DNA from: Pirellulales bacterium
Lineage (GTDB): Bacteria; Planctomycetota; Planctomycetia; Pirellulales; JAIMBC01
NCBI GenBank assembly: GCA_023511675.1
Contig: JAIMBC010000068.1
Coordinates: forward strand, 1 to 23,403
Length of the DNA stretch: 23,403 nucleotides
Direction: 5' to 3'
Shown one piece after another: positions 4,820-21,019 of this stretch. Under the pieces are notes generated by a model that was not told the DNA's origin, did no database searches, and saw nothing but the letters and a program-made list of their open reading frames with translations. The first letter of the stretch is position 1. Each line of letters starts with the position of its first letter. Both the position numbers and the translations under genes were made by a program.

Positions 4820-6046
4820 GTGCCTCAGGCTGACACGCTCGACCCGCGGATTCTGGGACAACGCATTGCCGAGGCCCGCAAGGCACGCGGCAAGACGCAG
4901 CAGGAGCTTGCGGAGTTCCTCGGGTGCAGCCGCCCCACGTACATCGCGATCGAGAAGGGAGACCGCCTACCCCATACGGAAGAGATCATCAAGCTCGCCG
5001 CCTTCTTGGGCAAGAAGGTGAATGATCTCGTCCGACCTACCGAGCCGGTGGTGGATCTCCAGCCCCACCTGCGGGCCGTCGCCGAGAAGATGAAGGGGGG
5101 CGACCAGGCCGCACTGCAGGCCACCATCGCCGATCTTCAAGAGCTGGCGGAGGACTACCGAGAGCTGGAGCGAATGATGCACGCGCCGCTGCCGTCCCAT
5201 TACCCGGCTGAGGTCGCACTCGACAGCCGCATCGACGCAGCCCAGCTCGCCGAGAGCGTTGCTGATCAGCAACGGTGCCGGTTGGGGCTGGGCGATCAGC
5301 CGGTCATCTACCTCCGCAGCACGCTGGAGTGGGAGGTGGGCCTGCGCATCTTCTACTCCAGCCAGTTGCCCTCGGCCGTTGCCGGAATGTACGCGTACAC
5401 CGCCGACCTCGGCTGCTGCATCCTTGTCAACCGCAAGCACCCGCCCGAGGGCCGCCGCGTCTCGATGCTGCACGAGTATGGCCACCTGATCGTGGACCGC
5501 TACAAGCCGGGCATCGACTACCTCACCCTGAGCGGGCGGAAGACCGCCAACGAGCGGTTCGCCGAGGCGTTCGCGCTCGCCTTCCTGATGCCCGCCGCTT
5601 CCGTGCGGCAGCGCTTCCATGAGATCGTGACGAGGACGAAGGACTTCCTGGTGCGCGACCTGCGGTACCTGAGCCACTTGTACTACGTCTCGGTCGAGGC
5701 GATGGCGAGGCGTTTGGAGGAGCTGGGACTGATTCCGAAGGGGAGTTGGCAGTTCCTCAAGGAAGCTAGCTTTGCTCCGCAACAGGCGGCGGAACTGCTT
5801 GGCCTGCCGCCGCAGCCGACCAACGACCGTCCGTACCCAGAGCGGTACATGTACTTGGCTGTACACGCCTATGAGCGGGGTGAGATCGGCGATAGCGATC
5901 TGGCCCACTACCTGCGGTGCGACATCGTTTCGGCCCGAGAGATCGTCGCCCGCACGCTCATCAGTGCCGGTGAAGTAGGCGAGACGGGAGAGAAGAAACA
6001 GATGCGGCTCGACTTCAACCGCTCGCTGTTGAGCGGGTCTTCCTGA
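4820..6046 (+). CDS. Fusion of an XRE-family HTH transcriptional regulator with an ImmA/IrrE-family (COG2856) zinc metallopeptidase
   Basis: A GTG start at 4820 follows AAGGAG (4808-4813) with 6-nt spacing. The N-terminus (LGQRIAEARKARGKTQQELAEFLGCSRPTYIAIEKGDRLP) is a canonical Cro/C1-type HTH. The HEXXH motif lies in MLHEYGHLIVD, followed by the helical C-terminal region typical of COG2856 proteins. Confidence 0.85.
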   Translation: MPQADTLDPRILGQRIAEARKARGKTQQELAEFLGCSRPTYIAIEKGDRLPHTEEIIKLAAFLGKKVNDLVRPTEPVVDLQPHLRAVAEKMKGGDQAALQATIADLQELAEDYRELERMMHAPLPSHYPAEVALDSRIDAAQLAESVADQQRCRLGLGDQPVIYLRSTLEWEVGLRIFYSSQLPSAVAGMYAYTADLGCCILVNRKHPPEGRRVSMLHEYGHLIVDRYKPGIDYLTLSGRKTANERFAEAFALAFLMPAASVRQRFHEIVTRTKDFLVRDLRYLSHLYYVSVEAMARRLEELGLIPKGSWQFLKEASFAPQQAAELLGLPPQPTNDRPYPERYMYLAVHAYERGEIGDSDLAHYLRCDIVSAREIVARTLISAGEVGETGEKKQMRLDFNRSLLSGSS

Positions 6047-6063
6047 GACCACAGAGGGGGGGA

Positions 6064-6600
6064 ATGGCCCACGCGGCGATCGATGCCTGCTGTCTGATCG
6101 ACTTGCTGGCCGGGGGGCACGTGGAAGAGATCCTGCGGGCGGCGGGCTTCGACTGGCACCTGCCATCCGCCGTGCAGGGCGAGGTCCGGCACGTGCGCCG
6201 GTACAACACGGCCCAGCCGGGCCAGTTGCTCGGGGTGGATGTGGATCTGTCGCCGCTGATCGCCTCGGGCGTGTTGCAGCCGTGCGGCCCCAGCAACCAG
6301 ACGGAACAGGACTGCTTTGTGCGGTACGCTGCCCAGTTCCGCTCCGAGGGGGAGGCCATGTGCCTGGCCCTTGCCGAGCAGCGCAACTGGACGCTGGCAA
6401 CCGGCGACCGACGGGCCATCTGCATCGCGCGGCAAGCCGGCCTGAGCGTAGTCAGTTGCCCTGTGCTGCTGAAGCGGTGGGCAGATGCGACTCAGCCCGA
6501 TCAGGCCACGCTGTCCAAGGTGCTGAGGGACATTCAGGTGCTCGCCCAGTTCAGGCCGAGTCCGTCCATGCCCGAGTACCAGTGGTGGCTCGATGCATGA
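6064..6600 (+). CDS. PIN-like nuclease domain protein (resembles the DUF4411-type PIN-like proteins found next to ImmA/IrrE peptidases); putative toxin/effector partner
   Basis: The start at 6064 follows agaggggggg and lies 17 nt after the upstream stop. The N-terminus AIDACCLIDLL is a PIN beta1 with the first Asp. Further acidic positions lie in ..VQGEV.., ..EGEAMCLALAE.. and ..LATGDRRAICIARQAGL... The size (178 aa) and operon position fit. Confidence 0.6.
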   Translation: MAHAAIDACCLIDLLAGGHVEEILRAAGFDWHLPSAVQGEVRHVRRYNTAQPGQLLGVDVDLSPLIASGVLQPCGPSNQTEQDCFVRYAAQFRSEGEAMCLALAEQRNWTLATGDRRAICIARQAGLSVVSCPVLLKRWADATQPDQATLSKVLRDIQVLAQFRPSPSMPEYQWWLDA

Positions 6601-6835: not shown

Positions 6836-8128
6836 CTAGATCGCCGGCAGCTCGAAGCCCTTGCGATATTCGCGGGAGAGGTAGCGGTTGGCCTCGTCGT
6901 CGTGGGGGAAGGTTTCGGTGTGGGGGTCGAATTCCAGGCGTCGGCCTGTGCGGTAGGCGATGTTGCCCAGGTGGCAGAGCAAGGAGGAGTAGTGCCCCTC
7001 TTCAATGTCGGCGATGAGATCCTCAGCGCGGCGGCTCTTCACACAGTCGACGAAGTTCTGGTAGTGGCGGGGCGAGTCGTGCCATGGCTCGCCTGCCGTA
7101 GGGCCGGGCTCGCCGCCGCGGAAAAAGACGCGGTAGCCGTCTCGATCGATCATCAAGAAGCCGCTTTCGCCAAAGAAGATATTGTCGTTGTCATGTCGGT
7201 GGCCGGGCATGCGGTAGGGGGTGAAGTCGCGCTGTTCGTAGACGAACAGCAGGTCGTCGTATTCCCAGGTGACGACCATAGTATCGGGCGTCTCCTGCGC
7301 ATCGCCCCGCGAGCCGAGCTTGGCCCCGCTGGCCGAAACCGCCTTGGGAGCCTTCAGGCCCAGCGCCCAGCGGCCCAGGTCGATCTGGTGCACGCCATCG
7401 TTGCCGATGTCTCCGGTACCGTACTCCCAATGCCAGTGCCACCCGCCGTGGAAGCGGTTGTAGTTGAAGGGACGTTGGGCGGCGGGCCCAAGCCAGAGGT
7501 CGTAATGCACGCCCTCGGGCACAGGCTCGTCTGGGCGGGCTTCCAGGCGGCCGCGCCGCTGGTTGTTGATGGCCTTGACCAGCAGCACCTTGCCGATAAT
7601 CCCCTGCCGCAAGAGTTCCCAGGCCTGCTGGTAGTACGGCACTGCTCGCAGGTTGGTGCCGTGCTGGACGATCCGGCCGTACTTGCGTGCGGCGGTCACG
7701 GCCAGGCGGCCTTCCACAATGTTGTGAGAGGCGGGCTTCTCCACGTAAACGTCCTTGCCGGCCAGGCAGGCCAGAATGGTGGCCGGGGCATGCCAGTGGT
7801 CGGGAGTGGCAATGGCCAGGGCGTCCACGTCCGAGCGGTCCAGCAGCGTGCGAAAGTCGACCACCAGCGGAGGCGCCTTGCCCTGAATGGCGCCGATCTC
7901 CTCGGCCAGCTTGTAGCCGCGGCCCTCGTCCACCTCGCAGACGGCGACCACCTGGCTGTCGGGAAGCGCGGCAAACTGCCGCGCCAGTGCCGCGCCCCGG
8001 CTGGCGCCCAGCACGGCCACGTTCACACGCTCAGAGGGAGCTCTCTTGGCTCCGGCCGCGCCGGCGGCCAGCCAGCTCACGGCCGCAGCCGTGCCCCGCA
8101 GCACGTCTCGTCGAGATAGGGTGTCCAT
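6836..8128 (-). CDS. Gfo/Idh/MocA-family NAD(P)-dependent oxidoreductase with a twin-arginine (Tat) signal peptide (possibly a GH109-like glycosidase)
   Basis: The start MDTLSRRDVLRGTAAAVSWLAAGAAGA (ATG complement of 8126-8128) follows GAGGAG. The sequence carries the SRRDVL Tat motif, the Rossmann stretch VNVAVLGASRGAALARQF and the family EKP motif (DVYVEKPASHN). The track start at 8230 is rejected. The overlapping plus ORF 6812-8119 is antisense junk. Confidence 0.85.
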   Translation of the reverse strand: MDTLSRRDVLRGTAAAVSWLAAGAAGAKRAPSERVNVAVLGASRGAALARQFAALPDSQVVAVCEVDEGRGYKLAEEIGAIQGKAPPLVVDFRTLLDRSDVDALAIATPDHWHAPATILACLAGKDVYVEKPASHNIVEGRLAVTAARKYGRIVQHGTNLRAVPYYQQAWELLRQGIIGKVLLVKAINNQRRGRLEARPDEPVPEGVHYDLWLGPAAQRPFNYNRFHGGWHWHWEYGTGDIGNDGVHQIDLGRWALGLKAPKAVSASGAKLGSRGDAQETPDTMVVTWEYDDLLFVYEQRDFTPYRMPGHRHDNDNIFFGESGFLMIDRDGYRVFFRGGEPGPTAGEPWHDSPRHYQNFVDCVKSRRAEDLIADIEEGHYSSLLCHLGNIAYRTGRRLEFDPHTETFPHDDEANRYLSREYRKGFELPAI

Positions 8129-8320
8129 CTCAGTCTCCTCGCTGGCGGATCTTGGAGCCGGATACCAGCGCGCTCTGCGTGCAGGACGCGCAAGCTGCCC
8201 GCTAGCATACCTGCCGCTGCCCGCGCGCACACCCGTTTTGCAGTCAGACTCGCCCGACCGCTAGCCGGAGGCACCGCTCATGCAGCCGCCCCTCAACAGC
8301 TCGCCCACTGCACGAGCGGC

Positions 8321-9544
8321 TTATCCGCTCGCCTCCCCGCCCTGCTCGGCGTACAGGCGCTGCGCGATCTCTTCGGCGTGAAACACCATCCAGGCCTGCT
8401 CCGTGTACACGGCGTGGCCGGCCAGGTGCCGGTAAATGGGCCTGGTTTCGGGACCATAATCGACCAGCAGAGTCGTGCCGGCATTGTGAACGCGTATGCC
8501 CAACGCCAGGCGGGCCGGCAGCTCGCGAGCCCGCAAGTGGGGTTGCAAGAGGCGGTGCAGTCGCCGCTCTGCCAGCCACAGCCGCGGGCGGATCCAGGAG
8601 GGAGGCGTGTTGGTGCCGGCAATGCCGAACTGCTGCACGTAGTCGCCGCCGGCAGCCGCCTGAACATCGGCCAGGGTGGGGGGCCAGGCGGCCTGCCAGG
8701 GTTCCCGTCCGGCTACAGGACGATGATGGATGATGTGCAACAACCGCGAGAATCCCCGCGGCTGCCAGCCGTAGCGCACGGGCGTGCCCAGGGTAACGAT
8801 GTCGAGCCCAGAGGGGTCCGGCCGTGGCACGGTTGGGGCGGCAACTGGGCGTTGCCGGTCGGCCACATCGTCGGACGCCGGTGGGGTGTGGCCGAGCAAC
8901 GCTTGGCGCACGCGCTGCCAAACGGGAATGTCCACGCGGCCGGTGAGCGGGTTGCGGTAGAAGGGCTCACAGGCGGTGAAGAAAGCCGAGAGTTGCTCGG
9001 GTTGGCCGCCCAGCAGTTGGGTGACCAGGGCCAGCACATTGCCTCCGTGGCTGTGCCCCCAGAGCAGCACGCGCTGCGGCTCAGGCGGCCAGGTTGTTGC
9101 CAGTTCGTCGATCAGGCGCACGGCGGCATCGGCGCGGGCAAGGTGGTAATTGCCACTGGACCAGAGAAACCGCCGCACGGCGATGGGCGGGCCGCCTGCG
9201 GTCAACTGCCGTTGCAAGAGGGCTGCGTACTGCGGCGTGTAGTTAGCCGCTTCTCCCTGGAGGCGATCGACCAACCCCTTGAATTGCCTGACCAGGGCGC
9301 GATGCGCTCGCGGCAGCCAGCGTTCAAGCTGCACCAGCGCCCCCAAGGCGTCGTAGCCGGCAAAGGTGCCGTGCAAAAGATAAATGACCGACACGTGTGC
9401 CGCCCGAAGGAGATCTCCGGTGCGGGCCAGGCGGGCACTCCCCTCCTCAGACTCAGGGGCGGGGCAGGGCGGCGCAGCCAGAAGCTGGTAGCGCGAAGTG
9501 GGGGGCCCCGGTTGGTACGGCTGGTGCAGCAGCGGGGCTGACAT
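8321..9544 (-). CDS. alpha/beta-hydrolase fold protein (esterase/lipase-like)
   Basis: The 407-aa ORF has the nucleophile elbow GHSHGG (GxSxG) in ..RVLLWGHSHGGNVLALV.. and the stretch VIYLLHGTFAGYDALG near the N-terminus. The overlapping plus ORF 8378-9541 has an antisense-like composition. Confidence 0.65.
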   Translation of the reverse strand: MSAPLLHQPYQPGPPTSRYQLLAAPPCPAPESEEGSARLARTGDLLRAAHVSVIYLLHGTFAGYDALGALVQLERWLPRAHRALVRQFKGLVDRLQGEAANYTPQYAALLQRQLTAGGPPIAVRRFLWSSGNYHLARADAAVRLIDELATTWPPEPQRVLLWGHSHGGNVLALVTQLLGGQPEQLSAFFTACEPFYRNPLTGRVDIPVWQRVRQALLGHTPPASDDVADRQRPVAAPTVPRPDPSGLDIVTLGTPVRYGWQPRGFSRLLHIIHHRPVAGREPWQAAWPPTLADVQAAAGGDYVQQFGIAGTNTPPSWIRPRLWLAERRLHRLLQPHLRARELPARLALGIRVHNAGTTLLVDYGPETRPIYRHLAGHAVYTEQAWMVFHAEEIAQRLYAEQGGEASG

Positions 9545-9663
9545 GGCGGCCGGCTTCCAGGACGTGATCGGGCGCTTCGTATGGACGAACTACCAGCGTA
9601 CCACACCAGGTCTTGTCGGGCCGCCCCTTCCGCTCGTCGGCGAAGAGAAGGCTAGCTGCGATA

Positions 9664-10554
9664 TCATGTCGCCGGCAAGGAACTCGTGCTTGGCCAGCAC
9701 CGTCTGAAGGCGCACGCCGCCACGTACCGCCGTTGAAACACACCTGGTTCAGCTTGGCCGCGTCGGCAATGCTGGCAAGCGGCCTCACGGCTTTCAGAGT
9801 GGTGCGTGCGGCCGTACACGAGTAACGCGCGACGCTTACGGAAGTGCTGCCCGCCAAGGGCATAGTGGCGGCAAGAGGTTGTGGGCTGCACGCACAGGCC
9901 CGTCAGCCACTGCACAAGGTGCGCCGCCCAGCGAATCGAGTTTCGCTTGCTGAACGTGAACAGCCGCTTCAGGCCATCGATCCTGTCGGCCGGGTTCCGA
10001 GTGTCGTGGGCACGCGCCGAAGGCAACTGCAAGAAGCGATCTGTCGGTCCGTCGCTGGTCAGCTTGCTTGCCGGTGGAGCGGCCAACGTGTTCGTCGCCG
10101 CTCTATCTCCCAACATGGCAACGCATGTACGGCAGTAGGCCATGGGGGGAACGGTAGAACACGCCAGAGCGAAGATGCCAACCCCTCGTGCAGGCGAAGT
10201 GTCTGCCGTGGCAGCAGGCCGCGCAGCAGATGCCAGATGGTCGATCTCGCAGATCTGCCATGCAAATAGCGTCACCTAACGAGACAAATCATGCTGCCAG
10301 GTGGTGAATATTGGTGAATATTGTTGCTGGCCAACGCGCGCGAGGATAGAGTGGAAGTGATGCAGACGGGTTCCTCCGAGGTGCCAAGATGCGTGCTGCT
10401 GCACGCCGATTGAGAACCTCTGGGGAGCCGAGGTTGCGTTGAGCAGGATTGCCTGCGCAGCCGTCGGCGCCGCGAGCATGCCCTCTGGGCACGCGTTGGC
10501 AATGGCGGTGTGCAACCACTCGATGAGGCCCGTGCTTCCAGCGCGAGGCTGCAT
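9664..10554 (-). pseudogene. Possible decayed gene: one reverse frame runs for about 297 codons with a single in-frame TAG (complement of 10276-10278); unrecognised
   Basis: Track ORFs 10276-10554(-) and 9664-10275(-) are contiguous in one frame and separated only by a stop. The composition is poor (Arg/Cys/Ser-rich) and I recognised no motif. The stretch lies in a 1.4 kb span without credible genes. Confidence 0.15.
10301..10321. repeat. Tandem direct repeat GGTGAATATT x2
   Basis: Direct reading of ..ccaggtggtgaatattggtgaatattgttgctgg.., a locally AT-rich spot in the gene-poor region. Confidence 0.6.
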
Positions 10555-10710
10555 GGTCTTGCTAGCTCGCGCCCGCGACAGTTTTTAGGGCAGGGCTGGC
10601 ACGGCGTTGCCGCCTCGCAAGGCCTTGTGCCGTTTGCAACCTCGCAATGACGATTTCGGACTGGGTTGAAGAGAAACGCTGCAACCCACGGGGACGGAGT
10701 CCGCGCCATG

Positions 10711-10739
10711 GTCAGAACCTTGCCGTAGTCAGAACTTTG
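10711..10739. promoter_or_regulatory. Direct repeat GTCAGAAC(C/T)TTG x2 (spacer 5 nt), about 300 bp upstream of the first cluster gene; candidate regulator binding site
   Basis: gtcagaaccttg (10711-10722) and gtcagaactttg (10728-10739). Its position at the head of a co-directional 10-gene cluster is the only functional hint. Confidence 0.25.
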
Positions 10740-11033
10740 TGGGGCGTTCGCCTCATCTCCGCAGCATGACGGCATCGCGCGCGTACAGCCGCTCGCCTCT
10801 GCGATGCCCGTGAGACTTGACTCTACCCCATTCGCTTGGCGGCTTGGCGCCGCTGGCGCGTTTCACCTCGTATCAGGGTTTGGGTTTTTGCGCCGACGCC
10901 TTGGCGCAGCAGCTTGCTGCGCTAGCGGCGTTTGACCTGCACATGTTGCCGCACCAAGGGCCCTTGGGTGCCGGGGGGCGGCCATGCAAGGCGGCCACAT
11001 CGACGCGTATCTCTGGTTTATCGAAAGGCAGCC

Positions 11034-12938
11034 ATGCAGCAGGGCCAGCTTGATTTGGGGGCTGTGGTGAGCAGCGCGCCGGCAGCGGTGCGCGGGGAGG
11101 CAGCGGGCGATCCGCTCGGCGTCGCGGCCGCCGAGGTGCGCGGAGGGCCGGCCGTGCGGCGCGTGCTGGTGATTGGCGCAGGGCCGGCCGGCCTGACCGC
11201 GGCCTACGAGCTGACGCGGCAGGGCGTGGCCGTGCAAGTGGTGGAGCAGCACGCGCTGGTGGGCGGCCTGGCACGCACCGAGAGCTACAAGGGCTACCAC
11301 TTCGACATGGGAGGCCACCGCTTCTTCACCAAGAGCCGGGAGGTGGAGCGGTTGTGGCACGAGATCCTGGAAGACGACTTCCTCCGCCGGCCACGTCTCT
11401 CTCGCATCTACTACAACAAGAAGTTCTTCTACTATCCGTTGCGGCCGCTGAACACGCTGCTGGGGCTGGGCCTCTGGGAGAGCCTGCGGATCGCAGCCAG
11501 CTACTTGAGGTGGCAGTTATTCCCCTACAAGCAGGAAGAGACGTTCGAGCAGTGGGTCACCAACCGCTTCGGGCGGCGGCTGTTCGAGACCTTCTTCAAG
11601 ACCTACACAGAGAAGGTGTGGGGCATCCCCTGTACGGAACTCAAGGCAGAGTGGGCAGCGCAGCGCATCAAGGACCTGTCGGTCAAGACGGCCCTGTTGA
11701 ACATGTTCTTCAAGCCGCGGAAGGTGATCAAGACGCTGATCGAGCAGTTCGATTACCCGCGACTGGGCCCCGGCATGTTGTGGAACGCCGTCCGCCGCAA
11801 GGTCGTCGAGCTGGGCGGCCAGGTCCGCACGCAAACCGAGGTGGTGCGGCTGCACCGCAACGGCCGCCGCATCGAGGCGGTGACGTTGCTTGCCGACGGG
11901 CGGCAATCCACGGTCACGGCAGATGCCTTCCTTTCCAGCATGCCCATCAGCGAGGTGATCAAGCGGCTTGATCCCCCCCCGCCGCCCGAAGTGGCCGCCG
12001 CGGCCGCACGCCTGACGTACCGCGACTTTCTCACCGTCTGCCTGATCGTCAACCAGCCTGTGTTGTTCCCCGATAACTGGATCTACGTGCACGACCCCGA
12101 GGTCCGCGTGGGCCGGATCCAGAACTTCAAGAACTGGAGCCCCGACATGGTGCCCGACCCCGGCAAGACCAGCCTGGGGTTGGAATACTTCTGCTCCGAG
12201 GGAGACGCCCTCTGGTCGATGAGCGATGCCGAGCTGATCGAACTAGGAAAGCAGGAACTGGAACGCATCGGCCTGGCCCGCGCGGCGGACGTGCTGGATG
12301 GCTGCGTCTTCCGCGTGGCCAAGTCCTACCCCGTCTACGACTCGGACTACCGAGAGCATCTGAGCGTGGTCCGGCAGTACGTGGAGGGGCTGGAGAACTT
12401 CCAGACCATCGGCCGCAACGGGCTGCATCGTTACAACAACCAGGACCACGCCATGCTCACCGGCATGTATGCGGTGCGCAACCTGCTGCACGGAGAGCGG
12501 CACGACCTGTGGCAGGTCAATGCCGACATGGAGTACCACGAAGAGGTCCGCGCCGCGGGCGTGGCCGCAGATGCGGACAAGCTGGCCGAGGCCATTCAGG
12601 CGGCATTGGCCGGGGCGTTTCTCAAGCTCGATCGCGGGGCCTTTGGCGTGGCGCTGGGCGTGGTGTGCGGCCTGGCGCTGTTTGCCGCCACGCTGGTGCT
12701 CGTGTTGCGCGAAGGCGCCAACGTGGGCGCCACGCTGGGCCTGTTGCGCAACTACTTTCCCGGCTATCGTGTGACGCCGCTGGGCAGCGTGCTGGGCCTG
12801 GGGTACGGCTTTCTCACAGGCTTTGTGCTCGGCTGGACCACGGCCTTTTTCCGCAATCTGGCGGTGTTCCTCTACATGGCCGCTGCGCACCGCCGCAGCG
12901 AGCACGCCTTGCTGCGCAAGCTGCTGGAGTACCTGTAA
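11034..12938 (+). CDS. FAD/NAD(P)-binding flavoprotein of the UDP-galactopyranose mutase-like (Glf/amine-oxidase) superfamily, with a C-terminal 2-TM membrane domain
   Basis: The start ATG at 11034 (gaaagg upstream) is preferred over the track start 10932. It has the dinucleotide fold RVLVIGAGPAGLTAAYEL. The run VGGLARTESYKGYHFDMGGHRFFTKSREVERLWHEIL and YTEKVWG parallel Glf (HIGGNAY..YGAHIFHT.., YTEKQWG). The C-terminal 130 aa are hydrophobic (GVALGVVCGLALFAATLVLVL.. and GSVLGLGYGFLTGFVLGW). Confidence 0.8.
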   Translation: MQQGQLDLGAVVSSAPAAVRGEAAGDPLGVAAAEVRGGPAVRRVLVIGAGPAGLTAAYELTRQGVAVQVVEQHALVGGLARTESYKGYHFDMGGHRFFTKSREVERLWHEILEDDFLRRPRLSRIYYNKKFFYYPLRPLNTLLGLGLWESLRIAASYLRWQLFPYKQEETFEQWVTNRFGRRLFETFFKTYTEKVWGIPCTELKAEWAAQRIKDLSVKTALLNMFFKPRKVIKTLIEQFDYPRLGPGMLWNAVRRKVVELGGQVRTQTEVVRLHRNGRRIEAVTLLADGRQSTVTADAFLSSMPISEVIKRLDPPPPPEVAAAAARLTYRDFLTVCLIVNQPVLFPDNWIYVHDPEVRVGRIQNFKNWSPDMVPDPGKTSLGLEYFCSEGDALWSMSDAELIELGKQELERIGLARAADVLDGCVFRVAKSYPVYDSDYREHLSVVRQYVEGLENFQTIGRNGLHRYNNQDHAMLTGMYAVRNLLHGERHDLWQVNADMEYHEEVRAAGVAADADKLAEAIQAALAGAFLKLDRGAFGVALGVVCGLALFAATLVLVLREGANVGATLGLLRNYFPGYRVTPLGSVLGLGYGFLTGFVLGWTTAFFRNLAVFLYMAAAHRRSEHALLRKLLEYL

Positions 12939-12950
12939 CAGGCCCTCACC

Positions 12951-13277
12951 ATGCCCGAAGCCCTCAAGCCGCCGCAGGAGGCGGTGCTGACGAAATTGCT
13001 GAGGCTGAATGCCGCGCTCTATGGATTGGTGGCTGGCCTGGCCGCGGGCAGCGGACTGGCCGCCGCCACGCTGTGGCTGGTGATCAAGGGCGGTGTGCAG
13101 GTGGGGAAGCACCTGCAGTTGCTGCACCATTACTGTCCCGGTTACACCGTCACGGCGGGCGGCGCGCTGGTCGGCTTTGCCTACGGCTTTGGGTACGGCT
13201 TCGCGGCCGGCTACCTGGTCGCGCGCATCTACAACCTGGTGGTCGACTGGCGTGAACGACGCAAGCCTGCTCGCTGA
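12951..13277 (+). CDS. Small 2-TM membrane protein, paralogous to the C-terminal domain of the upstream flavoprotein
   Basis: The 108-aa ORF starts 13 nt after the upstream stop. LRLNAALYGLVAGLAAGSGLAAATLWLVIKGGVQVGKHLQLLHHYCPGYTVTAGGALVGFAYGFGYGFAAGYLVARIYNLVV aligns by eye with LKLDRGAFGVALGVVCGLALFAATLVLVLREGANVGATLGLLRNYFPGYRVTPLGSVLGLGYGFLTGFVLGWTTAFFRNLAV of gene 11034-12938. It has no strong Shine-Dalgarno site. Confidence 0.6.
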   Translation: MPEALKPPQEAVLTKLLRLNAALYGLVAGLAAGSGLAAATLWLVIKGGVQVGKHLQLLHHYCPGYTVTAGGALVGFAYGFGYGFAAGYLVARIYNLVVDWRERRKPAR

Positions 13278-13415
13278 TCGGCCGATGCCTCGCGTCCTGT
13301 CACCGCGAGGACGTCGGCACCCATCTCCTCTGCTTGGCAAGAGTTTGGGGGCCCTGGCGGCCATTCGCCCGGACGTGCCTGGCGGGCCCTCGAGTTGAAG
13401 CACGAGCACGTGGAC

Positions 13416-14312
13416 ATGGCCACCCTGCCGCAAACAGCCGCTGTAGTCCCCGACTTGACCGTGATCATCCCCGCTTACAACGAGGAAGCAGGCATCGTCC
13501 CCACGGTCAACGAGCTGCGCGCGGCCCTGGCGGGCGTGCCGCTGCGGAGCGAGCTGCTCGTGGTGGACGACGGCTCTACCGACGGCACCGCCGCCGCCGC
13601 AGAAGCCTTGGGCGTGCGCGTGATCCGCTTGCCCAACAACGAGGGCTACGGCGCGGCCATCAAGGCCGGCATCCGCGCTGTGCCTGCCGATCTGATCGCC
13701 ATCATCGACGCAGACGGCACCTATCCTCCCGCGGCTCTCGCCAAACTTGTCCATGCCATGGCCGACGCAGACATGGCCGTGGGCGCACGCGATATCCAGG
13801 GGCGCAACATCTCGTTCTTCCGCCGGCCGGCGAAGTGGTTCCTGAACTGGCTGGCCGGCTATCTGGCCGGACGCAAGATCCCCGACGTGAACTCCGGATT
13901 GCGCGTGATGCGCGGCAGCCTGGTGCGTCAGTTCCTCCCGCTGCTGCCCGCGGGCTTCTCCTTCACCACAACCATTACCCTCAGCATGCTGTGTACGGGC
14001 CGCCGCGTGCATTACGTGCCGATCGAGTACCGTGCCCGCGTGGGGCATTCGAAAATCCGCCCCGTGCACTTCACGGCCTTTCTCGTGCTTGTGCTGCGTA
14101 CGGTGATGCTGTTCAACCCGCTCAAGGTGTTTCTTCCGCTGGGCGGGCTGGTGTTTCTGGTGGGCATGGGCAAGCTGGTCCAGGATCTGGTGCTGAAGAA
14201 CCTTTCCGAAACGGCCGTGATGGCCTTTCTCTCCGCGCTGGTCATCTGGTCGCTGGGGTTGCTGGCAGACATGGTCGCCCGCACGCAGCTATTGCGGAAT
14301 GGATCGAACTAG
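13416..14312 (+). CDS. GT2-family polyprenol-phosphate glycosyltransferase (DPM1/GtrB/ArnC-like) with C-terminal TM helices
   Basis: The N-terminus LTVIIPAYNEEAGIVPTVNEL..LLVVDDGSTDGT..IRLPNNEGYGAAIKAGI..DADG.. shows the GT-A hallmarks (DDGS, DAD). The C-terminus carries two hydrophobic helices, as in GtrB/ArnC. The ATG at 13416 is preferred over the track's TTG at 13395; the start is uncertain (GTG at 13410 is also possible). Confidence 0.85.
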   Translation: MATLPQTAAVVPDLTVIIPAYNEEAGIVPTVNELRAALAGVPLRSELLVVDDGSTDGTAAAAEALGVRVIRLPNNEGYGAAIKAGIRAVPADLIAIIDADGTYPPAALAKLVHAMADADMAVGARDIQGRNISFFRRPAKWFLNWLAGYLAGRKIPDVNSGLRVMRGSLVRQFLPLLPAGFSFTTTITLSMLCTGRRVHYVPIEYRARVGHSKIRPVHFTAFLVLVLRTVMLFNPLKVFLPLGGLVFLVGMGKLVQDLVLKNLSETAVMAFLSALVIWSLGLLADMVARTQLLRNGSN

Positions 14313-14325
14313 GGAGGCACGCCGG

Positions 14326-15405
14326 ATGTGGGAGGCACCGTCATGGCGGCACGCCGGCGAGGGGAACGCAGGGATGCGGCCGCCTCGCGGCGTGCGCGCG
14401 ACAGGCCGCGCATGGGTTGCCGCCGCGCTGCGGCTGGCGGCCAGCGCCGTGCTGCTTTCCGGTCTCTGGATGGTTCTGCCGCGACAGCGGCTGGTGGCGG
14501 CCTTGGCAGGCGTGCCCTGGGCGGCCTGGGCTGCCGCGGTGCCGGCCTTTTTGTTGTTGCACCTGCTGGGTGCCTGGAAGTGGCGGTGGACGGCCAATCT
14601 GGCCGGCAGCGGCCTGCAATTGCGTGACGCCGTCCGCTGCTACTATGCGGGGCTGTTCGGCAATACTCTGCTGCCCTCGATTGTGGGCGGAGACGTGTTG
14701 CGGGCAGCCCTGGCGTGGCGGCGAGTGCGTTCGCCCGCCGGGCTCGTGCTGGGCAGCCTGGCCGACCGCATGCTGGACGTGCTGGCACTGGCCGTGCTGG
14801 CCGCAGGGGGGGGTGTGTTGGCCGCCAGCGAGGCAGGTACTGCCACACCCCTTGTGTTCGGCTCGTTGCTGGCCGGCGGTCTGGCCGCCGCGCTGGTGCT
14901 GGGAGCAGGGCTGTGGCTGTTCAGATTTCGCAAGCTCTCGTGGCGGTGGCGCCGCAAGTTGGCACTGGCGCGGCGTGCGGGGCGGCTGTTGTACCAGCAA
15001 CGTGCGCGGCTGCTGGTGAGTCTGGCAGCGTGCACGATGCTGCAAATGGGATTGATGGGACTCAACCTTTGGCTAGCCAGTTTTTGCGGACTGCGCGCCG
15101 CATGGCGGGTGTGGCTCTTTGCGTGGCCCCTGGGAAAGCTGGCGGCCATGGTGCCGGTGACGCAGGGCGGCATCGGCATCCGCGAGGCTGCGCTGGCAGG
15201 CCTGTTGCGGCCGTTTGGCGTGCCGGCGGCGCTTGCCGTGGCAGCCAGCCTGGTGTTTGAAGGCGTGATCATTCTGGGCAGTCTGGCCGGCGGATTGCTG
15301 GCAGTGTGGCTCGGCCGCTGGGGGAGCCCTTGCGTGGCGCAGCACGGGGTGGCCGCAGTACCGGGTGTGCGTGCGACTGCGTGGGAGGCACCGCATGCAG
15401 GCTGA
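14326..15405 (+). CDS. Polytopic membrane protein of the lysylphosphatidylglycerol-synthase-TM / UPF0104 'flippase-like' family, the usual partner of GT2 DPM1-like enzymes
   Basis: The ATG at 14326 lies 8 nt after AGGGAGG (14311-17) and 13 nt after the GT2 stop. The protein has multiple hydrophobic helices, Arg-rich loops and the family-like motif ..PLGKLAAMVPVTQGGIGIREAALAGLL... The track start 14299 lies inside the upstream gene. Confidence 0.7.
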   Translation: MWEAPSWRHAGEGNAGMRPPRGVRATGRAWVAAALRLAASAVLLSGLWMVLPRQRLVAALAGVPWAAWAAAVPAFLLLHLLGAWKWRWTANLAGSGLQLRDAVRCYYAGLFGNTLLPSIVGGDVLRAALAWRRVRSPAGLVLGSLADRMLDVLALAVLAAGGGVLAASEAGTATPLVFGSLLAGGLAAALVLGAGLWLFRFRKLSWRWRRKLALARRAGRLLYQQRARLLVSLAACTMLQMGLMGLNLWLASFCGLRAAWRVWLFAWPLGKLAAMVPVTQGGIGIREAALAGLLRPFGVPAALAVAASLVFEGVIILGSLAGGLLAVWLGRWGSPCVAQHGVAAVPGVRATAWEAPHAG

Positions 15406-16903
15406 CGAGCGTGCGCCACAGGTTGCGGATCGCATGCCCGCGGCATCGCAGGCGATGGAGTTGCAACCGCGGGCAGGCGCGGCGGCCCGGCCGCACATTG
15501 CCGTGCTGGGTGCGGGGCCGGCGGGCGTGGCGGCAGCGTGGCAACTGGCGCGCCGCGGCCTGGCGAGGGTCACGGTGCTGGAGGCGTGCGACGCTCCCGG
15601 CGGCAACGCGGGGAGTTTCGAGTTGGAGGGAGTGTATTGCGATTACGGCAGCCACCGGCTTCATCCGGTGGTAGAGCGGCGGATTCTGCGGGATCTGCGC
15701 GAGCTGCTGGGCGACGAGCTATTGTTGCGCCAGCGGCGCGGGCTGATTCGGCTGGGGGGCCGATGGATTCGATTTCCCCTGCGGCCGTTCGATCTTGCGG
15801 CGAAGCTACCGCCGCGCTTCCTGCTGGGCGTGATGCTGGATGCGGCGCGGAGGTTCGTCCCTGGGGGGAATCATCAGCCGGAGACATTTGCCTCGGTGCT
15901 GCGGCGCGGGCTGGGAGACACCATCTGCCGCGAATTCTATTTTCCCTATGGGCGGAAGATCTGGGGAGTGGAGCCGGATGCGTTGGACGCGGCTGCGGCG
16001 CGGCGGCGCGTCTCGGCGGGGACCGTGGGCCGCATGCTGCGCAAGGTGGCGGGCCAGCTCCCTGGCCTGCGTTCGGCCATGGCGGGAAAGTTCTACTATC
16101 CCCGCCGGGGGTACGGGCAGATCAGCGATGCCTTGCATGCCGCGGCGGTGCGTGAGGGGGCCGAGTTTCGCTTCGGCGCCCGGGTCACAGCCATTGAACG
16201 TCAGGCGAACGGCGTCGCCTGCGTGCGCTTCGAACAAGGGGGCTGTGAGCAGCGCTTGTCGGCAGATTCCGTCTGGTCCACGCTGCCGCTCAACTTCACC
16301 CTGCGCTGCGTGCAGCCTGCTGCCCCGCCCGAGGTGCTCGCCGCCGCCAGCCGCCTGCGCTTTCGCGGCATGCTGCTGATTTACCTTGTGCTGGCACAGC
16401 CGCGGTTTGGCGATGCCGACGCGTATTATTTTCCCGAGCCAGACATTCCCATCACGCGGCTCTCGGAGCCGAAGAACTATTCGGGTGCCGATGCACCGCG
16501 CCACTGCACCGTGTTGTGCGCGGAACTTCCCTGCGACTCGCAGGACATGCTCTGGCAGCAAGACGACGCCAGCCTGGGACGCAGCGTTTGCCAGTGGATC
16601 CGCGCCGCGGGCCTGCCGCTGGCGGATACGGTGCGGCGGGTGGAAACGCGCCGGCTGCCGCACGCCTATCCGATCTACGACGTGGGGTACGCGCAGCACC
16701 AGCGGCGGGTGGAGGAGTGGCTGGGAGGCATCGAGGGCCTGGTACTGCTGGGGCGGCAAGGGCTGTTCGCACACGACAACATCCACCACACGCTGGCCAC
16801 GGCCTATGCGGCAGCGGACTGCCTGGGCGCAGACGGCTGCTTTGACCGGCGGCGCTGGGGCGAGTGCCTCGAGCGTTTTCAAGACCATGTGGTCGAAGAT
16901 TGA
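15395..16903 (+). CDS. FAD/NAD(P)-binding flavoprotein, a paralogue of gene 11034-12938 (Glf-like superfamily) without the membrane tail
   Basis: It has the HIAVLGAGPAGVAAAWQLARRGL dinucleotide fold. GGNAGSFELEGVYCDYGSHRLHP parallels GGLARTESYKGYHFDMGGHRFFT. The ATG at 15395 overlaps the upstream stop (TGA 15403-15405), and alternative downstream ATGs are possible. Confidence 0.8.
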   Translation: MQADERAPQVADRMPAASQAMELQPRAGAAARPHIAVLGAGPAGVAAAWQLARRGLARVTVLEACDAPGGNAGSFELEGVYCDYGSHRLHPVVERRILRDLRELLGDELLLRQRRGLIRLGGRWIRFPLRPFDLAAKLPPRFLLGVMLDAARRFVPGGNHQPETFASVLRRGLGDTICREFYFPYGRKIWGVEPDALDAAAARRRVSAGTVGRMLRKVAGQLPGLRSAMAGKFYYPRRGYGQISDALHAAAVREGAEFRFGARVTAIERQANGVACVRFEQGGCEQRLSADSVWSTLPLNFTLRCVQPAAPPEVLAAASRLRFRGMLLIYLVLAQPRFGDADAYYFPEPDIPITRLSEPKNYSGADAPRHCTVLCAELPCDSQDMLWQQDDASLGRSVCQWIRAAGLPLADTVRRVETRRLPHAYPIYDVGYAQHQRRVEEWLGGIEGLVLLGRQGLFAHDNIHHTLATAYAAADCLGADGCFDRRRWGECLERFQDHVVED

Positions 16904-18055
16904 ATGGCAGACATGAACATCCTGCAACGCATCGCACGCCACGTCCGCCTGACGCTCAAGAGCTACCGGCCTGCCAGCACGCCGCCCTTTCTGGTGCTGT
17001 TCATCAACTCCATCTGCAACATGAAGTGCGACCACTGCTTCTACTGGCAGCAGCTCAATCAGCGCGATGACTTGACCTTCGAGGAGCTGGTGCGGCTCTC
17101 GGAGGAGCTAGGACGCGTCGAAACGTTGAACCTGTCCGGGGGCGAACCATTCTTGCGCAAGGAGTTCGCGCCCATCTGCCGCCAGTTCATCCGCCGCAAT
17201 GGCGTGCAAGAGATCTACGTGCCCACGAACGCCTATTACACCGAGCGGACCGCCAGCGCCGTCCGCGACGTGTTGCAGGAGCGTTCGCTGCGGCTTTTGG
17301 CAGTGGAACTCTCGCTCGACGGCATGCCGGAGTTTCACGACACGTTCCGCGCCACGCGCCATGCGTTTGCCAGAGCCATGGATACCTATGAAGCGCTGGC
17401 AAGGCTCCAGCAGCAGGACCGCCGGCTGCAGATCCATGCCAACTCCTGCGCCACCCAGCTCAATATGGAAGAGATCAAGCGGCTGACCACCTATCTGTTC
17501 GACCGCTGCCCGCAAATCTCGCACCATAATCTGGCCATCATCCGGGGCGATCGCAAGAACCCGACCCTGCAAGGCCCGGCGCTGGAGGAGTACCGCGCCC
17601 TCTACGCCTACATGCGCCGCTTATGGGCGCCGCGCGAGGCGGCACGCCTTGGCGCCATTGTGGAACCGATGTTGCAATGGACCAAGCTCAAGGCCGCCGA
17701 GACGCAGGCCCAGTACGTGCCCTGCCGGGCTGGCGTGTTGAGCGCCGTGATCCATGCCAACGGAGACGTGGCCGTTTGCGAGCAGCGTCCGCCGATCGGC
17801 AACCTGCGGCGGCAGACGTTCACCGAGATCTGGCAGTCTCACGTGGCGCAGCAGGTGCGGTGCTCGATTCGCGCCAAGGAATGCTACTGCACCAATGAGG
17901 TCTTCATGTGGCCGAGCATCGTGTTCCAGCCCGCGCACCTGGTCAGGGCGATGGTCGGAGCGAGGGCGTGGCAAAAGGCCTCGCCGCTACCCCAGCAGGA
18001 ACGCGCCGCTTACGCGGACGCGGTCGATGTGCCCGCCAACCACAGAGCTTCCTAA
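16904..18055 (+). CDS. Radical SAM enzyme with a C-terminal SPASM/twitch-type auxiliary cluster domain
   Basis: The CxxxCxxC motif lies in [17 protein letters not shown] Gly-rich SAM motif sits in [11 protein letters not shown]-terminal Cys cluster spans ..[36 protein letters not shown]... The start ATG immediately follows the upstream stop (tgaATG at 16901-16906). Confidence 0.85.
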
Positions 18056-18151
18056 CCCAGCGCCGCACGCCGTCTCGGCAACGCCTCACGCCTGGCGCCA
18101 CGCCGGGGCGGAGATAACCCTCCTGACGCGCGGCGCGCAGGTTCCCACGAG

Positions 18152-19276
18152 ATGACCACTGACCGCAACGAGGCCGAACACCTCTCCCCTGCTGGACGAT
18201 CCGCCGGCGGCGACGCGCAGCCTCTCCTCCAGGACAGCGTGCCGTCGATCACGTTGATCGATCCTTCGGTTGCAGCCAGCAACCTGGGCGACTTCATCAT
18301 CATGGAGGCCGTACGCCGGGAGCTGGCGGAGCTGCTGGCCCGGCTACGCTGTTTCACGGTGGCCTCGCACGAACGCATGACGCGCTTCAGCCGCGGCCTG
18401 ATACGCCAGTCTGCCGTTGCCATCGTGGGGGGCACCAACCTACTTAGCTCAAGAATGTGGTTCCGCTGCCCGTGGAAGCTGACCCCGCTGGACGGACTGC
18501 TCTGCCGGCGGATCGTGCTCATGGGCTGCGGCTGGTACCAGTTCCAGCGCCGGCCCGACCCGTATTCCCGCTGGCTGCTGCGGAGCATCCTCAGCGCAAC
18601 GCACGTGCATTCCGTGCGAGACAGCTACACGCTCGCCAGGCTGCGGTCGATCGGCATCACCAACGCGCTCAACACGGGCTGTCCCACGCTGTGGTCCTTG
18701 GACCCAGAACGATTGCGTACCATCCCCGTGGAGCAGGGCCATGCCGTGCTCACCGCGCTCAACACCTACTTTCCCAACCGCAGGCTCGACGGCGAGTTGC
18801 TCCAGCTCCTCTGCCGTGCGTATCGCAAGGTCTATCTCTGGCCGCAGAACCCGGCCGATTACCCTTATGTCCGGCAGTTCGGTCTGCGCATCCACTATGT
18901 CGACCCCACCTTGCAGGCACTGGACGAACTGCTCGTGCGCGAGGCAGGCATCGATTACGTGGGCAACCGCCTGCATGCGGGCATTCGTGCCCTGCAACAC
19001 GGCGTGCGTTCGCTGATTGTGGAGGTCGACAACCGCGCACAGATGATGGGGGCTGATTTTGGCTTGCCCACGGCGGCGCGGGCGGATCTGGCGGGTATTG
19101 CCCGATGGATCGAACGCTCCCCTCCGCTGGCGCTGCGCCTGCCGCGGGCGGCGATCGATGAATGGAAGCAGCGGCTTTGGGCATCGCTGGGCATCGTTGA
19201 GCCGGCTGGCGGTGCGGTGGCGCGTGCCTACCAGCCGGCGGCGCGCAGGGCGGAGTGCGGCAGCCATGATTGTTGA
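18152..19276 (+). CDS. Polysaccharide pyruvyl transferase family protein (CsaB/WcaK/ExoV-like)
   Basis: The N-terminal ITLIDPSVAASNLGDFIIMEAVRREL fits the family's NLGD motif. ..VGNRLHAGIRALQHGVRSL.. fits the C-terminal conserved block. The match rests on recall of the Pfam PS_pyruv_trans pattern. Confidence 0.65.
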   Translation: MTTDRNEAEHLSPAGRSAGGDAQPLLQDSVPSITLIDPSVAASNLGDFIIMEAVRRELAELLARLRCFTVASHERMTRFSRGLIRQSAVAIVGGTNLLSSRMWFRCPWKLTPLDGLLCRRIVLMGCGWYQFQRRPDPYSRWLLRSILSATHVHSVRDSYTLARLRSIGITNALNTGCPTLWSLDPERLRTIPVEQGHAVLTALNTYFPNRRLDGELLQLLCRAYRKVYLWPQNPADYPYVRQFGLRIHYVDPTLQALDELLVREAGIDYVGNRLHAGIRALQHGVRSLIVEVDNRAQMMGADFGLPTAARADLAGIARWIERSPPLALRLPRAAIDEWKQRLWASLGIVEPAGGAVARAYQPAARRAECGSHDC

Positions 19277-20931
19277 GGCCGGAACGCTTCAGGACGGCGC
19301 TGAGGTGGCAGCGGACGTCTGCATTATCGGAGGGGGGGCTGCGGGCATCACGCTGGCCCGCGAGCTGTCCCACACCAGATTGCGCGTTTGCCTCCTAGAA
19401 GGCGGCGGCCTGAGCTACGAGGCGGAATCGCAGGCGCTGGCAGCCGGCGAAACCAGCGGCGTGCCCTATTTCGACCTGGCGGAAAGCCGGTTCCGCATGC
19501 TGGGCGGCAGTACCTACCGTTGGGGTGCACGGGGACGCCCCATGCAGCCGATAGACTTTCAACAGCGGCCTTGGGTACCGCTGAGCGGGTGGCCGATCTC
19601 GCTAGCGGAGCTGGAACCGTATTATGATCGGGTCCACGAGCTGATCGGCTGGCACAGGCCGTTCCACTTCGACGGAGGCGTGTGGCGGCATTTCGGCACC
19701 CAGCCGCCGCCACTGGATGAGCGGAGGCTGGCATACTGTGCCTTCCAGTTTGGCAAGACGCTGCTGTTCGGCACGCACTTTCGCAAGCCGCTCGAACAGG
19801 CCGCGAACGTGCGGGTCTATCTGCACGCCAATGCCGTGTTGCTGGCAGCCAACGGAGCGGGGAATCATCTGGAAGCGGTCGAGGCGCGCAAGCCTGGCGG
19901 CAGCTTCCGCGTGCGGGCTAAGTACTATGTGCTCGCCTGCGGCGGTATCGAGAACGCCCGACTGCTGTTGCTGTCCAACGACGTGGTGCCCAGCGGCCGG
20001 TGCAACGAACGGGACCTGGTGGGCAGGTACTTCATGGAGCATCCAACCTTCACGGCAGGCGAGCTGGAGACGGCCGATCCGTGGCGCGTGCTGGATCTGT
20101 TCACGCCCGGCCTGTTGCGCCGTAGGCTGGTCGAGGTAGGCATGTGCCTTTCTCCCGAGGTGCAGGGCGCGCGACGTTGTTGCAATGCCGTTGTGCACGT
20201 CAAGCCGGTCGTTGACGGCGACGCCACGCAGGCACTGCGAGAGCTGCTGGCCGGACTGGTGCGGCGGCAGGCGCCGGACCACACGCGCCGCCTCTTGCGC
20301 ACCCTGCTACGCGACCCGGGAGGAGTGATGGCCAACCTGTTACGCCACGCGCTGGGCCGGCCCAAGCGCTTCCGCATCCAAGGGCTGCGCGCAGAGGTGC
20401 GCACGGAACAGGAGCCAAATCGCGCCAGCCGCGTGACGCTGGCTGAAGCTCGAGACGCCCTGGGGCTCCGCAAGGCGCATGTGCACTGGGTACTGTCCGA
20501 ACGAGACCGCCTCACCATGCGCGTCATGGCCGAGGTGTTTGGCCAGGAGATGGAGCGTCTCGGCCTGGGACGCCTGCTGCCAGGCGCCTGGATCAGGGAG
20601 CACTCTGAAGCCTGGCCCGCTCACCCGGGTTTGCACTACCATCACCCCCAACTCCGCCAGCCCCAACGCACAAGACAGCGGCTGGCCCCCGGACCTGGTC
20701 GGCGGCCACCACCACATGGGAACCACCCGCATGCCGCAGTCCCCGCACGATGGAGTGGTAGACCCAGACTGCCGCGCACACGCCGTGGACAATCTGTTCA
20801 TCGCGGGAAGTTCCGTGTTCCCCACAGCGGGTTTTGTCAATCCCACCCCCACCATCCTGGCCCTGACCCTGCGGCTGGCCGAGCACATCAAGCACCGTTG
20901 TGCCCTGCCAGGCGCTGACGGGGCGCCGTGA
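19266..20931 (+). pseudogene. GMC-family FAD oxidoreductase (choline-dehydrogenase-like) interrupted by an apparent +1 frameshift between about 20617 and 20700
   Basis: The N-terminus DVCIIGGGAAGITLARELS..RVCLLEGGG..RMLGGSTYRWGARGRP is GMC-like in frame 0 (ATG 19266), and that frame stays plausible to ..GAWIREHSEAWPAHPG (about 20630). The conserved GMC C-terminal block GHHHMGTTRMPQSPHDGVVDPDCRAHAVDNLFIAGSSVFPTAGFVNPTPTILALTLRLAEHI is only in frame +1 (track ORF 20479-20931). C5, C4 and C5 homopolymers lie in between (20645-49, 20661-64, 20686-90). Confidence 0.7.
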
Positions 20932-21019
20932 AGGTCGGCATGACCAGCCGCCTTTGCCTGGCCACGCCTCTACGGTGCGTGTGCGCCTTGCAGCTACAAC
21001 CACCAAGCGAGCTACGTCG

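Follow-up and report, generated by a model that had tools for sequence, protein, structure and literature searches.

The window analysed here, a stretch of 23,403 nucleotides (nt) from a Pirellulales bacterium (contig JAIMBC010000068.1 of assembly GCA_023511675.1), harbours a flavoprotein gene at 11034-12938, with a product of 634 amino acids (aa), which is followed on the same strand by a small open reading frame (ORF) at 12951-13277 with a product of 108 aa. The C-terminal tail of the flavoprotein and the small protein are two copies of one module with two predicted transmembrane (TM) helices, and are hereafter called type B (the fused copy) and type A (the free copy). We report that the two types form an ancient pair that has been kept in more than ten phyla, and propose that this pair may hold an enzyme resembling UDP-galactopyranose mutase (UGM) at the cytoplasmic membrane.

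Two copies of a glycine-zipper module

A preliminary description of the window, made from the letters alone, had taken the tail and the small ORF for homologous two-helix glycine-zipper modules, and both alignment and motifs bear this out. The last 124 aa of the flavoprotein align with the 108-aa product without gaps and with identity at 38 of 93 positions (41%; E=1e-14 in BLASTP with compositional adjustment), and the Smith-Waterman score of 171 compares with 32.2±6.1, and a maximum of 61, in 2000 composition-preserving shuffles (z=22.6). The genome has 66% GC, and G, A, L and V abound in both segments, as would be expected if their likeness were an artefact of TM and glycine-rich composition. 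This explanation is refuted by the shuffles and by the compositionally adjusted alignment, as well as by an exhaustive database search in which the motifs were position-specific and invariant across 2130 representative proteins. A hidden Markov model (HMM) of the family placed one module in each protein, covering aa 517-621 in the flavoprotein and aa 4-106 in the ORF product, and detected no third copy in the window, which thus contains exactly two. Both match the family profile over its full length, including the invariant L, G, Y, V, G, G, G, G and N columns.

The two genes also look genuine. The GC content at third codon positions (GC3) of the flavoprotein gene is 0.87 and that of the small gene is similar (Table 1), a coding-like bias in a window of 66% GC. 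Independent annotations call the same genes in four contigs with an identical 108-aa product, the upstream gene being complete at 634 aa in three of these and a contig-end fragment in the fourth. The small product is 100% identical to a database representative (P0001) from a Pirellulales metagenome-assembled genome (MAG).

Helix 1 of both copies carries the pattern GxxxGxxxG, and helix 2 of both carries GxxxGxxxGxxxGxxxG. The glycine-zipper helix at which both copies were first thought to end is indeed common to them, but the tail does not end there: it continues into an additional basic amphipathic helix of about 28 aa (aa 607-634), which the free copy lacks. The most conserved motif of the family is L.LL..(F/Y).PGY.V(T/S)..G, and helix 2 ends with a conserved N. 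Hydropathy is clear-cut for helix 1, whose Kyte-Doolittle maximum over 19 residues reaches 2.7 for the tail and 1.9 for the small protein; helix 2 is marginal in the window at about 1.4, the mean over 82 orthologue pairs being 1.7-1.8. In the AlphaFold2 models, the two long helices of each module are joined by a short helix in the loop. Clusters of K/R lie just before helix 1 and after helix 2, and a single conserved K is found at the start of the loop. These flanks are consistent with a hairpin having both termini in the cytoplasm (N-in/C-in), a topology that would be required if the flavin adenine dinucleotide (FAD) enzyme fused upstream of type B is cytoplasmic.

Table 1. Positions of the genes and of the predicted module segments in the window
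Feature	Position	Strand	Remarks
Flavoprotein, catalytic part (UGM-like FAD enzyme)	11034-12584	+	NF005548 / PRK07208.1-4; assigned by NCBIfam, Pfam and PDB similarity
Type B module fused at flavoprotein C-terminus	12585-12938	+	aa 518-634 plus stop codon; HMM 120 bits
Type B N-terminal amphipathic helix	12585-12644	+	
Type B TM helix 1 (TM1)	12645-12707	+	
Type B conserved loop	12708-12779	+	L.LL..YFPGY.VT
Type B glycine-zipper TM helix 2 (TM2)	12780-12851	+	
Type B basic amphipathic C-terminal helix	12852-12935	+	
Spacer, flavoprotein TAA stop to small-gene ATG	12939-12950	+	12 nt; both genes in the same reading frame
Free type A module	12951-13277	+	108 aa; HMM 142 bits; GC3 0.83
Type A N-terminal amphipathic segment	12978-13016	+	
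Type A TM1	13017-13085	+	
Type A conserved loop	13086-13157	+	
Type A glycine-zipper TM2	13158-13232	+	
Type A basic C-terminus	13233-13274	+	
Glycosyltransferase family 2 (GT2), polyprenyl-phosphate glycosyltransferase type	13395-14312	+	Pfam Glycos_transf_2
Flippase-like membrane protein	14299-15405	+	LPG_synthase_TM (Pfam/NCBIfam)
Flavoprotein 2, tail-less divergent UGM-like	15365/15395-16903	+	Pfam/NCBIfam; no module

An ancient and conserved pair

The pairing of the two types was followed in 80 loci from GTDB species-representative genomes of more than ten phyla, all but one labelled as MAGs, by six-frame analysis of the modules with flanks of about 10 kb. The loci were collected with an alignment of type A (A2), narrower than the broad family alignment (A1), which had no stretch conserved enough for the purpose; they are therefore biased towards relatives of the type A protein of the window. 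The lineages sampled were Chloroflexota, Binatia, Methylomirabilota, Desulfobacterota and other "delta" lineages, Acidobacteriota, Nitrospirota, Nitrospinota, Verrucomicrobiota, Gemmatimonadota, Rhodothermales, Planctomycetota and Actinomycetota. Exactly two modules were present in 78 of the 80 loci. The layout of the window, a flavoprotein fused to B and directly followed by a free A, was by far the most frequent (65/80); in six loci A lay 1-5 kb downstream of the fusion, in another six a free B, the flavoprotein and a free A followed each other, and in one B and A were adjacent with the flavoprotein elsewhere. The unfused form is exemplified by a metagenome contig of the Joint Genome Institute (JGI), L006, with a GT2, B (121 aa), flavoprotein (465 aa) and A (106 aa) in succession. 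Only one module was visible in the remaining two loci, one of them at a contig end. The other, L015, has a lone type A at 9920-10321 with no second module or flavoprotein within 10 kb on either side, and is the sole clear exception to pairing among the 80 genomes. Type B was part of the flavoprotein in 71 loci and a separate protein in seven, type A was free, and the additional C-terminal helix is a feature of type B.

The preliminary description had read the two copies as a local duplication whose free product might dock the second, tail-less flavoprotein encoded downstream (flavoprotein 2). The copies are indeed adjacent, the paralogue lies 2 kb further downstream, and the family HMM detects no module in it, in line with its having been described as tail-less. 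The identities tell against a recent event. Across genomes the mean identity is 52% between A modules and 43.5% between B modules, while A and B share 36% within a genome and the same 36% between genomes. As the copies within one genome are no more alike than those of different genomes, and as each type is better conserved across phyla than the two are with each other, the duplication predates the divergence of the phyla and both copies have been kept since; A and B are two orthologous groups. Nor does the distribution of flavoprotein 2 suit it as a docking partner: an orthologue lies within 10 kb of the pair in only two of the 80 loci (L027 and L073; outside this set also in L007 and L091), and it is therefore not the general partner of A. 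It is B that constantly accompanies A, and natural tandem fusions join module to module. A recent duplication recruiting the second flavoprotein is thus scarcely tenable.

Tandem proteins are common in the family. Among the best 150 representatives, 32 carry two or three modules in one chain, mostly of about 200-225 aa. In some lineages, a gammaproteobacterial MAG being an example, there are three modules, with a free B-like module ahead of a tandem protein of two modules (L089 at 7626-8663, L090 at 7611-8588 and L091 at 7669-8675). A tail-less flavoprotein follows the tandem protein in L089 and L091, and none is adjacent in L090. The three-module pattern is matched by P0111, with all three in a single chain, and by P0116, in which three modules are joined to Wzy_C. 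For one natural tandem, P0113, an AlphaFold2 model from an alignment of 109 sequences reached a mean predicted local distance difference test score (pLDDT) of 85.2 and a predicted template modelling score (pTM) of 0.67. An artificial chain of the B and A modules of the window, linked by the four intergenic codons (QALT), gave pLDDT 85.1 and pTM 0.75. Both models are confident and consist of helices throughout. The latter, a prediction across an artificial linker, would agree with the two hairpins being packed against each other in a defined way.

In the window (12936-12953, from the stop codon of the flavoprotein to the ATG of the small gene) a single readthrough would yield a B-A tandem like the natural ones of about 200 aa. 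Readthrough as a conserved feature was considered and rejected, since the two genes were in frame in 19 of 68 adjacent pairs, which is about what chance would give.

A large family with telling fusions

The exhaustive HMMER search, made against 1.84 billion representatives, returned 2130 proteins at E<=1e-3, of which 838 reached E<=1e-10; the 2130 are representative clusters at 50% identity. In other genomes, too, the module is found both fused and free. The 73 close homologues of the 108-aa protein are all free, with lengths of 94-141 aa, and none has a Pfam domain; by source name they are hypothetical proteins, save three automatically labelled by JGI as NhaP-type antiporters. Over all source-named homologues the only exceptions to "hypothetical protein" are four such JGI labels as ion transporters. 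Relatives of the tail are either fragments of flavoprotein fusions or free proteins of 120-140 aa that share the additional C-terminal helix.

Several fusions name possible partners. The arrangement of the window, flavoprotein plus B, recurs in P0176, and in P0146 two modules are joined to a flavoprotein. A GT2 with a TM region of its own is joined to two modules in P0124, and P0219 combines Trm112, a methyltransferase and B. A word-indexed search with the tail returned short proteins only and missed even the 634-aa protein of the window. Since this kind of search under-reports fusions, the evidence for them was taken from the exhaustive HMM search and the six-frame analysis. In five loci (L005 at 8673-10474, L039, L064, L065 and L067) the flavoprotein-B fusion is broken into short ORFs by apparent frameshifts in assemblies of long-read style, which accounts for tail homologues of "158-217 aa" in the protein search, such as P0078. 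Taken together, the family of two-TM glycine-zipper modules appears to be undescribed, large and phylogenetically broad, and of the type of small TM anchors or accessory subunits in glycan biosynthesis.

The flavoprotein resembles UDP-galactopyranose mutase

The catalytic part of the flavoprotein belongs to NCBIfam family NF005548 (PRK07208.1-4, an unnamed FAD oxidoreductase), which it matches over aa 42-512 with 697.8 bits against a cutoff of 389, and contains the Pfam domains Amino_oxidase and NAD_binding_8. Its nearest relatives of solved structure are UGMs of the eukaryotic type (3UKA, about 82 bits, E=2e-22). Alignment to 3UKA shows identity at 14 of the 20 active-site positions tabulated for the Aspergillus fumigatus enzyme (PMC3322874), among them H63, F66, F158, Y162, W167, R182, W315, Y317, R327, R447, Y453, N457 and Q458. 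At the position of N163 the flavoprotein has T, as bacterial UGMs do, and E373 and Y419 were not aligned. The conserved arginines R182 and R327 bind the diphosphate of UDP, and their mutation inactivates or cripples UGM (PMC3322874). The flavoprotein scores below the cutoffs of the curated UGM models, with 40.9 against 303.75 bits for TIGR00031 and 18.2 against 26.3 bits for Pfam GLF. It is probably a nucleotide-sugar pyranose/furanose mutase, as judged from the residues conserved. A polyprenol-linked substrate had been suggested earlier; because both diphosphate-binding arginines and most other active-site residues of UGM are kept, a nucleotide sugar is more likely to be the substrate.

The characterised mycobacterial mutase Glf is cytosolic (PMC10951656), so that a membrane tether would be an added and distinguishing feature of the flavoprotein described here.

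Neighbouring genes

In 59 of 89 loci the gene immediately upstream of the flavoprotein encodes a GT2 with a TM region at its C-terminus, and this GT2 is of the same subtype as the one fused to two modules in P0124. The GT2 of the window, encoded downstream of the type A gene, is of a different subtype, scoring merely 44.6 bits against the TM-bearing one. Its best NCBIfam similarities are to AglJ, dolichyl-phosphate hexose transferase, ArnC and PpgS, all below cutoff. Flavoprotein 2 shares 30% identity with the first flavoprotein and has diverged from UGM in its His loop (GGH to GSH) and at the positions equivalent to Y453 (H), W315 (A) and Q458 (I).

These two genes and the LPG_synthase_TM gene between them open a second cassette (13395-22426, forward strand), which continues with a radical SAM/SPASM protein, a polysaccharide pyruvyl transferase, a GMC-type FAD oxidoreductase and a PhyH-Rieske fusion; a glycosyltransferase family 4 (GT4) gene is next on the source contig. 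Of this cassette, the GT2, LPG_synthase_TM, flavoprotein 2 and radical SAM parts recur in L007, L027, L073 and L091, and it looks like a separate conserved module for glycan modification.

Further genes of the window stand apart from this subject. Directly upstream of the flavoprotein, on the reverse strand at 8321-10775, three ORFs of 407, 203 and 167 aa have no Pfam or NCBIfam match. The first two are called again in the related contig L002; the GC3 of the 407-aa ORF is coding-like, and the 203- and 167-aa ORFs are doubtful. At 4820-6600 on the forward strand, a protein of 408 aa with HTH_3 and Peptidase_M78 domains (ImmA/IrrE-like) is directly followed by a PIN-domain protein of 178 aa. This pair has the look of a toxin-antitoxin system or stress switch unrelated to the modules, and is present in L001 and absent from L002. 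A membrane-scaffold protein of the SPFH/Band_7_1 family (480 aa) is encoded on the reverse strand at 1348-2790.

Known families and the holin label

Pfam contains no model for the module family, and searching PDB sequences with the family profile gave no match even at E<=10. Among solved structures and predicted viral structures (BFVD) nothing resembled the module models beyond generic hairpins, and the literature yielded nothing relevant on PRK07208, NF037947, DUF5676 or a membrane-anchored UGM. Only two library models gave any signal, and both describe small two-TM proteins. Pfam DUF5676 (2TM family) matched 12 of 28 aligned members weakly (best E 2.9e-4), the ORF product itself scoring 14.6 bits (E=0.063), below the gathering threshold of 27.6. 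NCBIfam NF037947, named "holin_4 / bacteriophage holin", matched all 28 over nearly the whole of its 75 positions, with a best E of 4e-12. These resemblances may reflect distant homology or a shared glycine-zipper composition, and not function.

Class II holins have two TM helices in an N-in/C-in layout. Their likeness to the modules, together with the consistent matches to NF037947, would fit an origin of the modules as holin-like pore formers of phages. Against such an origin, the tail (35.8 bits) and the ORF product (26.3 bits) score far under the 70-bit cutoff of the model, no PHROGs family was matched, a tblastn search of 50,697 phage genomes with the 108-aa type A protein returned nothing, and no structural match was found among predicted viral proteins. 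Moreover, the approximately 90 loci are without lysis cassettes or phage genes and all lie among genes of glycan biosynthesis. We therefore hold a phage origin to be very improbable, and either the name of the model is misleading or the relationship is very distant.

A proposed membrane-held mutase

A membrane-anchoring or oligomerising role, as first suggested for the module, is also the best reading of the present data. We propose, at a probability of roughly 0.55, that A and B combine into a heteromeric TM unit of four helices, by which the UGM-like enzyme is anchored at the cytoplasmic face of the membrane and docked to membrane enzymes of glycan assembly. Each module would be an N-in/C-in hairpin lined by glycine zippers, with an outer loop of about 24 residues carrying the conserved motif and with basic cytoplasmic flanks. 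B and A would pack side by side through their zippers, and since B is a C-terminal extension of the enzyme, which is taken to be cytoplasmic, the latter would be held on the inner face of the membrane. The unit may then plug the enzyme into the glycan-assembly machinery, in most genomes a GT2 with its own TM region. Fusions of GT2 with modules, of modules with a flavoprotein and of a flavoprotein with a module have all been found, and on this basis the modules are predicted to bridge mutase and GT2 physically. In this way the furanose nucleotide, which is disfavoured thermodynamically, would be produced at its site of use, by a form of substrate channelling.

Several observations weigh against this proposal. 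The hydrophobicity of TM2 is merely marginal in this genome, and the window is without the TM-bearing GT2 that accompanies the system elsewhere. The assignment of the mutase rests on conserved residues, the protein scoring below the cutoffs of the curated UGM models. The contacts between A and B and between module and GT2 are putative ones, suggested by pairing and fusions. As for the model of B joined to A, it was made with an artificial linker and the alignment of the tandem proteins. Finally, conservation is strongest in the outer loop and at the start of TM2, beyond the needs of a passive anchor, as though a specific ligand or partner were engaged on the outer side.

Such conservation favours a different role for the unit, that of an active translocation element. 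It could handle a lipid-linked sugar or nascent glycan as a minimal four-helix flippase or channel subunit, with GtrA or ArnE/F as analogues and six helices in the three-module variants, or alternatively an obligatory accessory subunit of the GT2 in the manner of PgaD. Across phyla there is little or no variation in the outer-loop motif, in a polar T of TM1 and in the N that ends TM2. Long glycine zippers are a usual mark of oligomers that line pores or pack tightly. The modules occur in sets of two or three and are fused to a TM-bearing GT2 and to Wzy_C, and PgaD, a small inner-membrane protein on which the GT2 PgaC depends, provides a precedent (PMC8461298). On the other hand, the loci contain other candidates for a flippase, namely LPG_synthase_TM in the window and Polysacc_synt/Wzx in L005, L006 and L090, and the module is most often covalently joined to a soluble enzyme, which is anchor-like and would be unusual for a transporter. 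We regard this, the main alternative, as rather unlikely. A bolder and more doubtful version sees the A/B pair, or the trio of some lineages, as the membrane core of an undescribed device for the export of glycans or glycolipids. Such a minimal heteromeric flippase or channel would receive a furanose-containing lipid-linked product from a tethered mutase-GT2 complex, and the PGY.VT motif of the outer loop would serve as its substrate-handling site.

Should the anchoring proposal be correct, it would bear on a general problem. The equilibrium of the mutase strongly favours the pyranose, and how the furanose donor is delivered to membrane glycosyltransferases is usually left unexplained, because the characterised mutases are soluble. 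A mutase built into a membrane complex by a paralogous pair of hairpins would be a dedicated solution, and a widespread one, given 2130 representative clusters in more than ten mostly uncultured phyla. A large set of "hypothetical" proteins would gain a name and an HMM, the natural fusions predict which proteins touch each other, and the holin model of NCBIfam is seen to have distant relatives that are not phage lysis genes.

Comparison with known systems

The small flippases GtrA and ArnE/ArnF are likewise small four-helix units found beside a polyprenyl-phosphate GT2, and ArnE/F is a heterodimer of paralogues in a three-component glycosylation system. The subunits described here differ in having two helices each and not four, and in that one of them is normally fused to a soluble flavoenzyme; no Pfam match of the module to GtrA or SMR was obtained even at E<=1. 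By analogy, PgaD is the closest functional counterpart of an accessory TM subunit, as a small, membrane-integral protein that is encoded beside its GT2 and forms a complex with it (PMC8461298). It is related to the modules neither in sequence nor in fold, is present in a single copy and not as a paralogous pair, and is not fused to a nucleotide-sugar enzyme. PgaD is also regulated by cyclic di-GMP (c-di-GMP), a regulation for which there is no evidence here. The putative mutase itself finds its counterpart in UgmA of A. fumigatus (3UKA), with which the flavoprotein shares the FAD fold, the His loop (GGH) and both essential arginines. Unlike UgmA, it falls into the unnamed PRK07208.1-4 family and carries a two-TM module at its C-terminus.

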